From Candidatus Micrarchaeia archaeon (GTDB taxonomy: Archaea; Micrarchaeota; Micrarchaeia; Burarchaeales; JACRGF01), in NCBI GenBank assembly GCA_038870455.1, contig JAWCPB010000015.1:1-26761 (forward strand): DNA of 26,761 nt, in the 5' to 3' direction. The position numbers and the translations under genes are program-made. Each line of letters begins with the position of its first letter. Positions within the stretch are counted from its first letter, which is position 1. Positions 8,157 to 15,458 of the stretch are shown in pieces. The notes under the pieces were generated by a model. The model was given only the letters and a program-made list of their open reading frames with translations. It had not been told where the DNA came from and searched no databases.

Positions 8157-8684
8157 TCAGGCTTTCAGGCGCAGCCTCTTGCCGCGCGCGCTCGGGACGA
8201 TGCCGATCTCCGCCCCGGGAAACTCCCTCCCCAGCTCCCTGCCCTCGAAAAACTCGTGCAGGAAGACCGCGAGCGCCGCGACCTCCGAGTGCGGCTGGCT
8301 CGTGACCGAAATGTTGTGGTCGGCGAGCTCGTACGCCTCGCGCGGAACTTTTTCGCCGCCGACAACAACGAGCACGTTCTCTTTTTTTCTGAGCTCAGCA
8401 ATCCTCTCGCTGATTTTCTCTCCGTACATTGTGAGGTGGACAACGCAGTAACCGTTTTTCCTGAAATCCTCTATGGTTTTTTTCCAATTTTTTTCCTGCC
8501 TGATCTCGAAGCTCCCGCCCCATTTTCTCACAAGCCGCGTCACCCCCTCGGCAAGCTCCCTGTCCTCGTCGCCCGCGATGATGCAGGCGTCCGCGCCGAA
8601 GGCGCGCGCGGCGAGCGCCACGTGTGTGGTGAGGCGCGCGTCCCTGCCGATGCGGTGCCCGAGCCTCAGCACAGCCACAGCCAT
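8157..8684 (-). CDS. trm56: tRNA (cytidine(56)-2'-O)-methyltransferase aTrm56 (SPOUT)
   Basis: VLRLGHR..RD.R.TTHVALAARAFGA, VHLTMYG, VGGEKVP, and QPHSEVAALAVFL. Confidence 0.97.
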   Translation of the reverse strand: MAVAVLRLGHRIGRDARLTTHVALAARAFGADACIIAGDEDRELAEGVTRLVRKWGGSFEIRQEKNWKKTIEDFRKNGYCVVHLTMYGEKISERIAELRKKENVLVVVGGEKVPREAYELADHNISVTSQPHSEVAALAVFLHEFFEGRELGREFPGAEIGIVPSARGKRLRLKA

Positions 8685-8743
8685 GAAGTTAAATAAATTG
8701 TTTAAGCATAAAAATAAGACAGGGGGCCCGTAGCTCAGCTCGG

Positions 8744-8792
8744 AACCCTTTTTCGGCGCTCCGAAAAAGCGTTCACGAAAAAGGGTGGGCAG
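8744..8792 (+). other. tRNA intron 1 (49 nt, position 19/20, D-loop)
   Basis: Relaxed BHB: central helix GCUC(8738-41)/GGGC(8787-90), bulges GGA(8742-44) and AGU(8791-93), intron stem ACCCUUUUUCG/CGAAAAAGGGU. Cutting after the second nucleotide of each bulge regenerates a normal D-loop. Confidence 0.9.
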
Positions 8793-8936
8793 TAGAGCGT
8801 CCGGCTCTTAACCGGTAGGTCGAGGGTTCGAACAACCCTTTTTCGGCGCTTCGAAAAAGCGTTGACGGAAAAAGGGAGAGCGCCTGCGGCGCCAACCCTT
8901 TTTCGGCGCTCCGAAAAAGCGTTGACGGAAAAAAGG
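8744..8936 (+). repeat. Three copies of a ~42-43 nt palindromic module AACCCTTTTTCGGCGCTYCGAAAAAGCGTTSAC(G)GAAAAARGG
   Basis: Copies at 8744-8785, 8834-8876 and 8894-8936 differ at only a few positions. All lie inside the two tRNA introns. Confidence 0.95.
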
Positions 8937-8944
8937 TTCAAAAA
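8833..8944 (+). other. tRNA intron 2 (112 nt, position 59/60, T-loop)
   Basis: BHB: outer T-stem, central helix UUCG(8827-30)/CAAA(8939-42) with one C-A mismatch, bulges AAC(8831-33) and AAU(8943-45), intron stem AACC.UUUUUC/GAAAAA.GGUU. Cutting after the second bulge nucleotide gives the canonical UUCGAAU loop. Confidence 0.87.
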
Positions 8945-9381
8945 TCCCTCCGGGCCCGCTTTTCTTTCTCCAAGTAGAATGAAGCCGACAGGACGAACAC
9001 CGCGGTGATGTCGAGCGCCGACAGCGCGCAGAATGGGCACGTCGCCTTTATCACGAAGAGCTGGAGATAGACGAGGTAGAGCGTGAAGGCGAAGCCTCCT
9101 GCCGCGAGAAGCAGGAGGAGGCCGCGCAGGCTCTTTTCCGGGCGCCTGCCGTTTCTCTTCAGCCTGCGAATCACGCCCGCGGTGAGCGCGATGGCCGCAT
9201 AGCCCAGCACCCCAATCACCGCAACAGGAATTCCGTAAATCTCGCTGTGGGTTCCCCTGTTGATCGTGTCGCAACTCTCGATGCCGCACGCGCTGCCGTT
9301 CGCTTGGTAGTGGTCCCAGGTGAGGTAGGCAGAAAGCAGCACGCCGCCCAGCGCGAGCAGCGTGATCGCCTCGAGCTTCAT
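8938..9381 (-). CDS. Vitamin K epoxide reductase (VKOR) family membrane protein
   Basis: Start MKLEAITLLALGGVLLSAYL at 9381. Loop cysteines C(GIES)C, SEIYGIPVAVIGVLGY, LYLVYLQLFVIKATCPFC (CxxC). The 3' end overlaps the tRNA antisense. Confidence 0.93.
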   Translation of the reverse strand: MKLEAITLLALGGVLLSAYLTWDHYQANGSACGIESCDTINRGTHSEIYGIPVAVIGVLGYAAIALTAGVIRRLKRNGRRPEKSLRGLLLLLAAGGFAFTLYLVYLQLFVIKATCPFCALSALDITAVFVLSASFYLEKEKRARRDF

Positions 9382-9402
9382 GCCAATAATTTGCGCGGGA
9401 TG

Positions 9403-9409
9403 TTTTAAA
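9403..9409. promoter_or_regulatory. Single palindromic TATA element centred between divergent VKOR and lysS starts
   Basis: TTTTAAA at 9403-9409 is ~22 nt from the lysS ATG (9431) and ~22 nt from the VKOR ATG (9381). Confidence 0.55.
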
Positions 9410-9430
9410 CAATTTGTGCAAAATACTGGC

Positions 9431-10978
9431 ATGGCCGAAAGGGAACGCGGCCACTGGGCCGAGGAGCTCGCCGGCCGCGTGCTCGCTGAGAAGAAGCCCC
9501 CGTATGTCGTCGGAAGCGGCATTACAACGAGCGGGCCGACTCACCTCGGCACGCTGTGCGAGTTCCTTTTCCCCAGCGCGGTGCACGCCTTCCTCTCCAG
9601 AACGCACCCAGCCGAATTCGTTTTCGTGGCGGACATTCTCGACGCTTTCGACAGCGTGCCGGCGGCCCTCGCGGAGCACGCGGGCGAGCTGGAGGGCGAG
9701 CTGGGCAAGCCCCTCGCGGCCGTGCCCGACCCCCTCGCCTGCCACTCCTCGCTGGGGGAGCACTTCCTGGCCGACGCGCAGGCGGCCATGGACGCTTTCG
9801 GGGTGCGGCCCGAGGTGCTGCGCGCGGACGAGCTTTATGCAAAGGGAAGGTACGACCCGTACGCGATCACTTTCCTCAACCGCCTGGAGGAGACGAAACG
9901 CATTGTCGCAGAAACCTCGCTCAAGGGCGTGCTGCCTGACTGGTGGAGCCCCCTCATGCCCATCTGCAAGGGATGCGGGCGGGTTGCGACAACGCGAGTG
10001 ACGGGCTTCAGCGTGAAGGGCGGTGACGCGGAGTATTCCTACGCGTGCGACAGGCACGATGTGAAGTACGCTCGGGGATGCGGGCGCGCCGGCACCGCGC
10101 GCATAAGCGAGCACGCGTACAAGCTGACCTGGAGGCTCGACTGGCCGGCGCGGCAGGACTTTCTCGGGGTGAGCTGCGAGGGCGCGGGCGTCGACCACAT
10201 GACGAGGGGGGGAAGCTGGGACACCGCCCGCGCCGTGCACGAGAGGATTTTCGGAAAGGCACCGCCGGTCGCCTACAAGTTCGGCTTCATCCTCTTCAAG
10301 GGAAAAAAGTACAGCAAGAGCAAGGGAACGGGCATGGGCGTGGCAGAGCTCCTGTCGCTCGTGCCGCCCGAGCTCGTCAAGTACGCGCTGTACAGGCCCG
10401 ACCTCGAGGAAAACATAGACTTCGACCCCAGCGGGTACAACCTCATGCGGCTGTACGATGAGTTCGCCGCCGCGGCGCGGCTCGTCGGAAGGCAGGGGCT
10501 CTCGAGGGCCGACAGGAAGAGGGCGATTGCTTTCTCCCTCTCCACAGACCGCCTTCGCTGGCGCGCGGGCTTTGCCGACGCGCTCCTCTACTACCAGCTG
10601 TACGGAGACTGGGCGAAGGTCGGCGCCGCGCTCGGGGACGAGCAAGGAGTTAAATACCTCTCAAAATACATTGCCAAGTGGGTTGAGGAGGGATACGCGC
10701 CAGACGAGTACGCGTTTTCCTTTTCCCCCACAAAGCCGGAGAACAGGAAGGCCGCGCTCGCCTTCGCGGCCGCGCTGGCCGATGGCATGAGCGCGCTCGA
10801 CGTCCACAATCTCGTGTTCCGCGTGGCCGCCGAGCTCGGGCTGAAGCCCGATGCGCTTTTCAAAATCCTTTACCGTGCGCTCATAGCCAAAGAGCGCGGG
10901 CCGAGGTTTGGAAAGCTCGTGGAGGCCATCGGTGTGGCGAAAGTCAAGCGAACGCTGCTCGGGCTGTGCGGTGAATGA
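9431..10978 (+). CDS. lysS: Lysyl-tRNA synthetase, class I
   Basis: Start MAERERGHWAEELA. GITTSGPTHLGT (HIGH-like), Zn knuckles CKGCG and CGRAG, KLTWRLDWPAR, EGAGVDH, KYSKSKG (KMSKS-like), RGPRFG. Confidence 0.96.
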   Translation: MAERERGHWAEELAGRVLAEKKPPYVVGSGITTSGPTHLGTLCEFLFPSAVHAFLSRTHPAEFVFVADILDAFDSVPAALAEHAGELEGELGKPLAAVPDPLACHSSLGEHFLADAQAAMDAFGVRPEVLRADELYAKGRYDPYAITFLNRLEETKRIVAETSLKGVLPDWWSPLMPICKGCGRVATTRVTGFSVKGGDAEYSYACDRHDVKYARGCGRAGTARISEHAYKLTWRLDWPARQDFLGVSCEGAGVDHMTRGGSWDTARAVHERIFGKAPPVAYKFGFILFKGKKYSKSKGTGMGVAELLSLVPPELVKYALYRPDLEENIDFDPSGYNLMRLYDEFAAAARLVGRQGLSRADRKRAIAFSLSTDRLRWRAGFADALLYYQLYGDWAKVGAALGDEQGVKYLSKYIAKWVEEGYAPDEYAFSFSPTKPENRKAALAFAAALADGMSALDVHNLVFRVAAELGLKPDALFKILYRALIAKERGPRFGKLVEAIGVAKVKRTLLGLCGE

Positions 10979-15342: not shown

Positions 15343-15458
15343 GGTCAGCGGCCACAGGAGAGGGGTCAGACCCGAACCCATTCCGAACTCGGCAGTGAAT
15401 CCCTCTCACGACGTTGCCTGTACTGCCCTACGGCGGGAAAGCGCGTTGCTGCTGGCCA
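15343..15458 (+). rRNA. rrf: 5S ribosomal RNA (stand-alone)
   Basis: Terminal helix GGTCAGCGGC/GCTGCTGGCC, helix II GAGAGGG/CCCTCTC, conserved CCCATTCCGAAC loop, GTACTG...GGGAAA loop E region. TTTAAA at 15316-15321 lies upstream. Ends are approximate. Confidence 0.9.

Follow-up and report, generated by a model that had tools for sequence, protein, structure and literature searches.

Fujishima and colleagues are said to have described, in 2010, tRNA introns that transpose in the Thermoproteales. According to the available sections of two papers, such introns were acquired once species had diverged, and they are tolerated solely where a bulge-helix-bulge splice motif can form (PMC3239211, PMC4090602), and positions 20/21, 53/54 and 59/60 of the tRNA are known intron sites in the accessible text of the second (PMC4090602). 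The accessible text of the first describes an epsilon2 splicing endonuclease that cuts strict as well as relaxed motifs at non-canonical positions, and introns at 59/60 and 53/54, with strict or relaxed motifs, in Candidatus Micrarchaeum acidiphilum ARMAN-2 (PMC3239211). The route by which archaeal tRNA introns reach non-canonical positions has been an open question since the Thermoproteales work, and it is still so in the part available of a preprint on tRNA intron gains in Asgard archaea (bioRxiv 10.64898/2026.10.13.758758). Here we describe a short palindromic sequence module from which both introns of the tRNA-Lys(CTT) gene of a Candidatus Micrarchaeia archaeon are built. The gene lies in a stretch of 26,761 nucleotides, referred to below as the window, which corresponds to one contig (JAWCPB010000015.1) of a 1.04-Mb genome assembly (GCA_038870455.1; 51 contigs, 60% G+C, 90% complete). 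Taken together, the evidence presented below suggests that this module is probably a non-autonomous DNA repeat of about 40-60 nt, palindromic and Archaea-wide, which is tolerated inside tRNA genes, where it would be cut by the epsilon2 endonuclease, and has founded some of their introns.

No tRNA gene is called by ARAGORN in the raw window. When both introns are cut out, tRNA-Lys(ctt) is called in 803 of 1225 combinations of intron boundaries, and removal restores a cloverleaf tRNA, the behaviour by which archaeal bulge-helix-bulge tRNA introns are recognized. An earlier reading of this DNA, made without database searches (hereafter the sequence-only reading), had proposed that intron 1 is one module with a 7-nt tail and that intron 2 consists of two modules, a 17-nt linker hairpin and a tail. 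This architecture was confirmed both by reading and by a repeat search, the latter returning 44-nt direct repeats at 8743-8786, 8833-8876 and 8893-8936 with 86%, 100% and 95% identity, respectively, to the reference copy. The tandem T-loop copies of intron 2 are 97.5% alike, and the variable hairpin of copy 3 equals that of copy 1, a variant that is absent elsewhere in the genome. The read-based check of copy number that had been called for at the outset succeeded in part: an independent assembly of the same run reproduces 8500-8845 and 8904-9200 without any difference, and with them the whole of intron 1 and each junction of intron 2 with its exons, while 8845-8904 is spanned by no contig, and the count of two tandem copies, taken from one assembly, is not independently confirmed. 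Searched against Rfam, the window as a whole gave a 5S rRNA as its sole match and left the module without any family, and 20 module-bearing loci, searched at E values up to 1, returned only tRNA and weak chance rows.

The module itself is composed of an invariant 5' end, AACCCTTTT, a hairpin that is variable in sequence and nevertheless paired, and an invariant 3' core, AAAAGCGTTGACGGAAAA. In the alignment of a covariance model built from 33 copies (R1), the hairpin comprises 11 pairs with 95.2% of cells paired; 4 of the 11 pairs show compensatory change, and the observed covariation score was reached by none of 500 shuffles. A family of selected RNA helices with that much compensatory change is expected to show many G-U pairs. 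Here, however, 508 of 526 stem pairs are Watson-Crick, with only three G-T and three A-C combinations, and since the stems are so nearly pure and G-U pairs so rare, a constraint on DNA is favoured; the pairing would suit a DNA palindrome better than a selected RNA helix. Strand asymmetry between G-T and A-C was considered as a separate discriminator of RNA from DNA and abandoned, there being none (3 against 3); the rarity of both is the informative part. Terminal inverted repeats, which the sequence-only reading had ascribed to the module, do characterize the copies within tRNA introns but are missing from most intergenic copies and from most copies in other phyla, and in the tRNA copies they seem to be mainly the outer helix of the splice motif.

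Read from the alignment, one strand of the module carries a pyrimidine, a purine and a second purine tract in succession, which is the order of a class II intrastrand triplex as that layout is defined in the accessible portion of its description (PMC4666352). Among copies from other archaea, the bases following the third tract tend to be the parallel complement of those following the first, with a mean of 1.73 of 4 compared with 1.27 after shuffling, a value reached by 1 of 2000 shuffles. The same mirror test is negative inside this genome (1.23 compared with 1.47 shuffled), where the third tract forms the outer helix of the splice motif instead, and the copies found here would fit plain alternative Watson-Crick pairing and a triplex equally well.

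Table 1. Features of the tRNA-Lys(CTT) locus and other features named in the text. Coordinates are those of the window unless a contig (C) is given; L, locus; R1, covariance model of the module.
Feature	Position	Strand	Description
tRNA-Lys(CTT) gene	8724..8958	+	exons 8724-8743, 8793-8832, 8945-8958; spliced 74 nt; CCA not encoded
Intron 1	8744..8792	+	D-loop, after G19 (about 19/20-20/21); 49 nt: one module (8744-8785) and 7-nt tail TGGGCAG
Module copy 1	8744..8785	+	R1 60.7 bits; core slightly decayed (two changes)
Intron 2	8833..8944	+	T-loop (59/60); 112 nt: C, module, linker hairpin, module, 8-nt tail TTCAAAAA
Module copy 2	8834..8876	+	R1 66.7 bits
Linker hairpin	8877..8893	+	17 nt between the tandem modules (GCGCC TGC GGCGC), by sequence reading
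Module copy 3	8894..8936	+	R1 68.1 bits; top match in all genomes searched
Trm56 tRNA 2'-O-methyltransferase gene	8157-8684	-	
VKOR-family gene	8938-9522	-	3' end overlaps the tRNA-Lys 3' end by ~20 nt on the opposite strand
Class I lysyl-tRNA synthetase gene	9362-10978	+	
5S rRNA	15344-15457		Rfam match
C/D-box sRNA-like gene	C6:23000-23300	-	L026; module between C/D' and C'/D boxes, by eye
tRNA-Arg(CCG) 5' half	C11:9330-9560		L014; followed by modules and a T-run
3' half matching tRNA-Arg(CCG)	C38:1-150		complementary acceptor strand; behind a contig start that lies inside a module
RtcB	C16:7577-10399	-	L100/L101; two pieces (profile 1-74 and 47-426) in one stop-free 1087-aa frame
Second EndA-like protein	C2:1468-2526	-	L068; 352 aa; nuclease domain residues 205-347

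The module is far from confined to the tRNA-Lys gene. In total the genome holds about 49-56 copies: a scan requiring both core and 5' end found 49 full copies and R1 gave 56 matches, with a fuzzy scan returning 19 full copies and 41 3' core halves. Allowing at most one mismatch, the 18-nt core occurs 45 times, as compared with 0 occurrences of a reversed control pattern, and its occurrence is therefore not a matter of chance. Copies are spread over at least 25 contigs; 13 of 56 core matches are at most 300 nt away from a contig end, a copy adjoins 10 of the 102 contig ends, and because the repeat breaks the assembly in this manner the copy counts are lower bounds. Annotation is affected as well, in that few tRNA genes are found here by standard tools, namely 11 uninterrupted genes, or 25 with canonical introns allowed, by ARAGORN and 15 by the Rfam tRNA model. 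As for rRNA, two 16S primer motifs had no match in the assembly and a 23S landmark motif matched contigs C1 and C7; the rRNA genes of this genome may be unassembled or interrupted.

Genomic context was tabulated for 49 copies, partly by hand, with about half of the host assignments of tRNA copies made by eye. By this account 29 of the 49 copies reside in 19 tRNA genes or gene parts, all in sense orientation and at sites in the D-loop, the anticodon loop or the T-arm. The remainder consist of nine copies in intergenic composites, where the module is nested in the loop of another inverted-repeat element, nine in arrays without a nameable context, one directly after the stop codon of an open reading frame, and one in the loop of a gene resembling a C/D-box small RNA (sRNA), a candidate identified by eye on what we take to be the consensus of the C and D boxes. 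Two of the composite copies lie antisense immediately 3' of tRNA-Pro(TGG). Once the module clusters are removed, ARAGORN calls tRNA genes for Lys(CTT), Gln(TTG), Gln(CTG), Cys(GCA), Thr(CGT), Val(CAC), Phe(GAA), Leu(GAG) and Ser(GCT). Inspection by eye added Ala(CGC), Ala(GGC), Pro(CGG) with three module-type introns, Pro(GGG), Thr(GGT), Thr(TGT) and Arg(TCT) as hosts, and further Glu(TTC) and a second 5' part of Thr, both located at contig ends, a tRNA carrying a copy at 53/54 and the 5' half of Arg(CCG).

Several of these hosts carry closely similar modules. One identical hairpin variant is found in the D-loop of Ala(CGC), the T-loop of Thr(CGT) and the anticodon loops of Val(CAC) and Pro(GGG), and introns more than 70% alike in distinct tRNA genes at different positions, the measure applied to introns of the Thermoproteales type, occur among the Ala, Thr, Val and Pro genes. 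Transfer of whole introns including their tails was considered as a general rule and set aside, as modules with identical hairpins at different positions carry unlike tails. The 17-nt linker of tRNA-Lys intron 2 recurs, with compensating variants, between tandem copies on seven other contigs. A CRISPR array, which the 58-61-nt period of the tandem copies had brought into consideration, was rejected, the stretch between copies being the same linker hairpin throughout with no unique spacers.

Additional repeats accompany the module. At least three further repeat modules form mosaics with it on nine contigs of this genome and also in a congener: a G6/C6 hairpin unit, located 3 nt behind several tRNA 3' ends as well as inside canonical introns; an inverted-repeat pair of about 15 bp that encloses modules and adjoins tRNA 5' or 3' ends; and a unit of ~50 nt that is present too in the tRNA-Lys T-loop intron of a distant relative. 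In the case of tRNA-Arg(CCG), the two halves listed in Table 1 either belong to a split tRNA gene or were separated where the assembly broke within a long intron laden with repeats.

A bulge-helix-bulge comprises, on each strand, four bases of a central helix, two bulge bases, the site of cleavage, and a third bulge base that leads into the outer helix. According to this standard geometry, 20 module-bearing introns were scored for central and outer helices. Paired with its own exon, the tail forms at least 3 of 4 central pairs in 15 of the 20 introns and all four in 8 of 20, compared with 68/258 and 4/258, respectively, when tails are combined with exons of another position class, and with 50/122 and 9/122 when they are combined with other tRNAs of the same position class. 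Because perfect helices between tail and own exon far exceed those of the cross-position control, the tails are site-specific, and the short adaptor complementary to the local exon that the sequence-only reading had postulated is borne out. For both tRNA-Lys introns two 3-nt bulges surround a 4-bp helix: in intron 1 the central helix is GCTC/GGGC (4 of 4 pairs, one of them G-U) with an outer helix from the module ends, and in intron 2 it is TTCG/CAAA (3 of 4 pairs) with the T-stem as exon helix (3 of 3 pairs). In 3 of the 20 introns an outer helix was not found by this simple model, and a minimum free energy fold of the whole pre-tRNA showed the module hairpins along with the acceptor and T stems, without a clean splice motif.

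The enzymes suited to such substrates are encoded in the genome. A 387-aa endonuclease matches the ARMAN-2 epsilon2 EndA over its full length (PDB 4fz2, E = 3e-135), and an RtcB ligase is encoded as well, so that an endonuclease for non-canonical positions and a ligase are both at hand. The module introns would accordingly be candidates for removal from the transcript as predicted bulge-helix-bulge substrates. The D-loop of tRNA-Arg(TCT) in this genome contains a mini-hairpin without the core, similar to one in the tRNA-Lys D-loop of the congener, and because such core-less mini-hairpins sit in single-copy tRNA genes the core is presumably not needed for splicing.

Two further observations concern these enzymes. 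The RtcB match is divided into two pieces within a single open frame (Table 1), which looks like an intein-sized insertion in the tRNA ligase. The genome additionally encodes a second EndA-like protein, whose N-terminal part of ~200 aa matches no solved structure; relatives of this part occur in 20 of the order's 28 other genomes.

Comparison with the congener mentioned above, genome G001, reveals how the module is distributed over orthologous sites. Leu(GAG) is uninterrupted in the congener and carries a 49-nt module intron at 37/38 in this genome, and Gln(CTG), likewise uninterrupted in the congener, here carries a module intron in the anticodon loop. The exact uninterrupted anticodon arm of Leu(GAG) is present in several families of the order, in 16 of its 28 other genomes, and not once in this genome; with the arm uninterrupted in these relatives and in the congener, the Leu(GAG) intron is a gain in this lineage. 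Empty orthologous sites, the mark of gain after speciation, are thus on record for Leu(GAG) and Gln(CTG), and no target duplication was seen at either insertion. Glu(TTC) has a 22-nt module-free intron in the congener and a module array in this genome. Thr(CGT), with a D-loop module intron only in the congener, has two more introns here, three in total, one of which is a two-module T-loop intron. An antisense composite follows Pro(TGG) here and not in the congener. In Val(CAC), finally, the two genomes share the same two-module intron, with 106 of 108 columns identical.

The tRNA-Lys gene has a different history. The congener possesses a syntenic tRNA-Lys(CTT), flanked by the same order of Trm56, VKOR-family and lysyl-tRNA synthetase genes (Table 1), with identical exons and, at each of the two sites, an intron of 24 nt; over the coding flanks of the locus, identity between the two genomes amounts to 77-79%. 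In the congener, the D-loop intron is a mini-hairpin that has both module ends and a similar tail and lacks the inner hairpin and the core. The T-loop intron of the congener is module-free and has an unrelated interior, the same first base and a 3' tail that is nearly the same. In three genomes of the order at a greater distance, tRNA-Lys has no D-loop intron and carries, at the same T-loop site, introns of 14, about 130 and 37 nt with unrelated sequence. As the module-free T-loop intron of the congener ends in nearly the same 3' tail, the T-loop adaptor is older than the modules, and we infer that the 59/60 site, together with its tail, long predates the modules it contains today. The D-loop intron would have arisen in an ancestor of the genus, and the tandem T-loop copies are most simply viewed as a recent copy of the D-loop module that was subsequently doubled in tandem. 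The empty sites that the sequence-only reading had sought among tRNA-Lys orthologs therefore exist for the D-loop in the three distant genomes, but the congener is occupied at both sites. In tRNA-Lys(CTT), the present modules do not appear to have created the introns as now seen. The two further suggestions of that reading, that the element is a source of tRNA introns and that it spread recently, hold for Leu(GAG), where a recent gain is evident; the first does not hold for the two tRNA-Lys sites, which predate their present modules, nor the second for the family as a whole, which is old and Archaea-wide.

Another run of the same study yielded a 19-kb contig with a tRNA-Lys-like gene that matches the exons only (compared over window positions 8721-8829); four other letters replace intron 1 and intron 2 is missing. 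This gene is an uninterrupted version from another organism of that community.

Within the order, 17 of 29 genomes, belonging to 14 of 18 genera, yielded R1 matches; these number 1 to 22 per genome apart from the 56 of this one, and in one well-sampled genus none of six genomes (6/6) has a match. These searches, of the kind the sequence-only reading had proposed, place the module well beyond the genome in which it was noticed. In a sample of the phylum, 23 of 151 genomes have a match, this genome being the richest with 41. The module-free genomes of the order are of two kinds, with either 32-39 detectable tRNAs or only 5-17, and those of the latter kind are therefore disrupted by other intron types.

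A scan for the exact 18-mer, with one genome per prokaryotic species, found at least 116 stretches, and 80 listed ones were scored with R1. A score of at least 30 bits was obtained by 49 of the 80 listed records, of which 48 have archaeal titles from many phyla. Carriers among those listed include DPANN-type archaea (Micrarchaeia, Iainarchaeum, Woese-, Aenigm-, Parv- and Nanoarchaeia and Altiarchaeia), archaea of the methane cycle and their relatives (Methanocellales, Methanosarcinales, Methanophagales/ANME-1 and Syntrophoarchaeum), and also Thermoplasmatales and Hydrothermarchaeaceae. The remaining listed records, mostly bacterial, score low, as is the case for chance matches to a bare 18-mer. 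Eight IMG/VR contigs with the exact 18-mer had been considered as viral carriers; they reach only 17-25 bits, have no hairpin, and were read as chance matches.

In other archaea, too, the module is associated with tRNA genes. Sense copies form the canonical intron of Gly(TCC) and Arg(GCG) in Methanocellales, of Pro(TGG) in Parvarchaeota, of Tyr(GTA) in Iainarchaeum and of Thr(TGT) in Thermoplasmatales, and an antisense copy lies inside the intron of tRNA-Glu(CTC) in a Methanosarcinales record. A T-loop motif occurs within 150 nt of 18 of 53 copies in other archaea, compared with 5% of random places in the same loci. In addition, direct repeats of 14-93 nt flank 9 of 45 copies, compared with 3 of 460 random places; at seven loci these repeats duplicate either the start of a gene together with its ribosome-binding site or 14-22 nt from the very beginning or end of a tRNA gene. 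Collectively, these data point to a module family that is old and spread over Archaea.

The sequence-only reading had noted that no mobilising enzyme is visible in the window, and for the families searched this extends to the genome as a whole. In the genome, 90% complete, there were no matches to RVT_1, to Phage_integrase or to the Y1 transposase of the RAYT type, the last of which, where it does occur in the order (3 of 29 genomes), does not follow copy number, and a TnpB match of 19.9 bits fell under the cut-off. The second EndA-like protein was weighed as a mobiliser and rejected: its N-terminal 200 aa are present in the module-free genera g17 (6/6 genomes) and g8 and were not found in the module-rich family f8, g12 and g15. 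Of the two forms of mobility initially suggested, a MITE/REP-like element (a miniature inverted-repeat transposable element or repetitive extragenic palindrome) or one moving at the RNA level, what stands is a multi-copy, non-autonomous element at unrelated tRNA positions; a fixed target duplication and a transposase partner, by contrast, were not found.

How might these observations be joined? In the explanation we favour, the repeat would land in non-coding, hairpin-loop-like places, which include the D-, anticodon- and T-loops of tRNA genes, existing introns, sequence flanking tRNA genes, and the loops of another palindromic repeat and of the C/D-sRNA-like gene. Inside a tRNA gene it would survive since the transcript remains cuttable: the module ends or the hairpin itself would supply the outer helix, the 6-8-nt tail would form the 4-bp central helix of the bulge-helix-bulge with the last exon bases, and the broad-specificity epsilon2 endonuclease, together with the RtcB ligase, would then excise the repeat. 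As regards tRNA-Lys, the T-loop would be an ancient, order-wide site whose interior was replaced by the module in this lineage before tandem doubling, and the D-loop intron, inherited from the common ancestor of the genus, would hold a full copy here; elsewhere in the genome the repeat would have made new introns, Leu(GAG) being an example. We infer the movement at the level of DNA, the targeting of loops and the order of events in the tRNA-Lys gene. Several points weigh against this explanation. Blind insertion of DNA does not predict that 29 of 29 tRNA-embedded copies here should be sense; no fixed target duplication was seen in this genome; and no mobilising enzyme was found among Y1, RVT_1, Phage_integrase and TnpB, with DDE transposases, casposases and homing endonucleases lying outside the search. 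The direction of change is established for Leu(GAG) alone, the uninterrupted Thr(CGT) pattern having matched 2 of 28 genomes; statements on loop targeting, like about half of the tRNA hosts, were read by eye; and the splicing of the module introns is argued from sequence, a search for RNA runs covering the locus having returned none and the one metatranscriptome of the same study having given no contig there. Finally, the invariance of the core across phyla could mean a selected function beyond mobility, and so could a Val intron so much better conserved than the coding flanks of tRNA-Lys.

The sense orientation would find a ready explanation if the module moved as RNA, an excised intron being reinserted into an RNA loop by the reverse action of endonuclease and ligase and then fixed via reverse transcription or RNA-templated repair. 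The same route would account for a splice-motif-forming tail on every tRNA-embedded copy, for similar tails on the T-loop introns of different tRNAs, for the hairpin variant that both introns of the tRNA-Lys pre-tRNA share to the exclusion of the rest of the genome, and for the Leu(GAG) intron, which has the 49 nt of the Lys D-loop intron and, by eye, a close sequence including a rarer core variant. It is, however, difficult to reconcile with antisense copies next to or inside tRNA genes and with the intergenic composites, with the scarcity of G-U pairs in the stems (3/526), with the unlike tails of nearest-neighbour modules at different positions, or with a genome in which no RVT_1 reverse transcriptase was found, and the flanking target duplications of other archaea are a signature of DNA; we regard movement as RNA as unlikely. 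Selection for a host-beneficial RNA or DNA structure that is not primarily mobile, whether a platform for a tRNA-maturation protein, a stable circular RNA or a regulatory intrastrand triplex, also strikes us as improbable. That the module presence varies between congeners and across the phylum, that host tRNAs differ between lineages, that both orientations occur and that core-less mini-derivatives persist in single-copy tRNA genes (the congener's tRNA-Lys and tRNA-Arg(TCT) here) all speak against it, as does the negative mirror test in this genome, although an 18-nt core and a 9-nt 5' end invariant across archaeal phyla, the conservation of the orthologous Val intron, and the pyrimidine-purine-purine layout with its mirror signal in other archaea, a class II layout in the accessible text of PMC4666352, are what such a function would lead one to expect. 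Hardly credible is the notion of a mere local duplication or assembly artefact. The unbridged interval at 8845-8904, the clustering of core matches near contig ends and the similarity of the tandem T-loop copies would fit it; for the family, however, it is refuted by the presence of the module on 25 contigs or more, in 16 further genomes of the order and in 48 archaeal records among those listed, and intron 1 and both borders of intron 2 were reproduced without difference.

The view of the module as a non-autonomous mobile element, residing in tRNA genes as a predicted splice substrate and able to found new introns, thus holds on present sequence evidence. A bolder proposal, which we advance tentatively and consider rather doubtful in its full extent, is that a single selfish hairpin DNA element, possibly triplex-forming and common to DPANN and euryarchaeal lineages, is moved by a universal host enzyme rather than its own transposase and constitutes a main source of new archaeal tRNA introns and, via long repeat-laden introns, of split tRNA genes. 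If true, introns would be scars left by a repeat able to survive only at places from which host splicing can erase it in the RNA.

Comparison with described systems highlights both likenesses and differences. The precedent cited by the sequence-only reading was that of the Thermoproteales, and it applies with the reservation that the host here is a Micrarchaeota-like DPANN archaeon with an epsilon2 endonuclease. Unlike the introns of that group, those described here share a stereotyped module with an invariant core, which is present in many archaeal phyla and is not confined to tRNA genes, being found elsewhere in either orientation, as tandem arrays and nested within other repeats. The enzyme of ARMAN-2 has its homolog here, but the available sections of the corresponding paper contain no description of sequence modules common to introns (PMC3239211). 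With bacterial MITEs and the REP/BIME/REPIN repeats the module has in common that it is short, multi-copy, non-autonomous and palindromic, with compensating changes, tandem or mosaic arrangements and breaks in the assembly; it differs from them in that neither a parent transposon nor a RAYT/Y1 enzyme was found here and that there is no fixed target duplication (14 to 93 nt in other archaea), and in that its copies lie inside essential RNA genes, where they would be neutralised by predicted host RNA splicing. The class II intrastrand triplex elements TMECO/ITxF (Holder et al., 2015, PMC4666352) resemble it, in the accessible text, in domain order, abundance and conserved repeats, and the copies of other archaea have mirror purine tracts; those elements are, by contrast, bacterial with loops of 1-6 nt, whereas in the present module a variable hairpin takes the place of loop 1 and an invariant sequence that of loop 2. 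A text search of the literature for the core (five 14-mers) and for a description of the module found neither, figures and supplements being outside its reach.

Closest in the question it raises is the Asgard preprint, the available part of which likewise records many independent intron gains at sites capable of forming the splice motif (bioRxiv 10.64898/2026.10.13.758758). That part offers no general route of arrival, whereas here a recognisable repeat family marks the arriving sequence: the invariant core can be searched for in any archaeal genome, clean empty and filled orthologous sites are available, and carriers include Methanosarcinales and Methanocellales, some members of which are cultivated. 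The question thereby becomes testable, notably with regard to a protein that binds the core, to movement as DNA or as RNA, and to the origin of the splice-motif tail.

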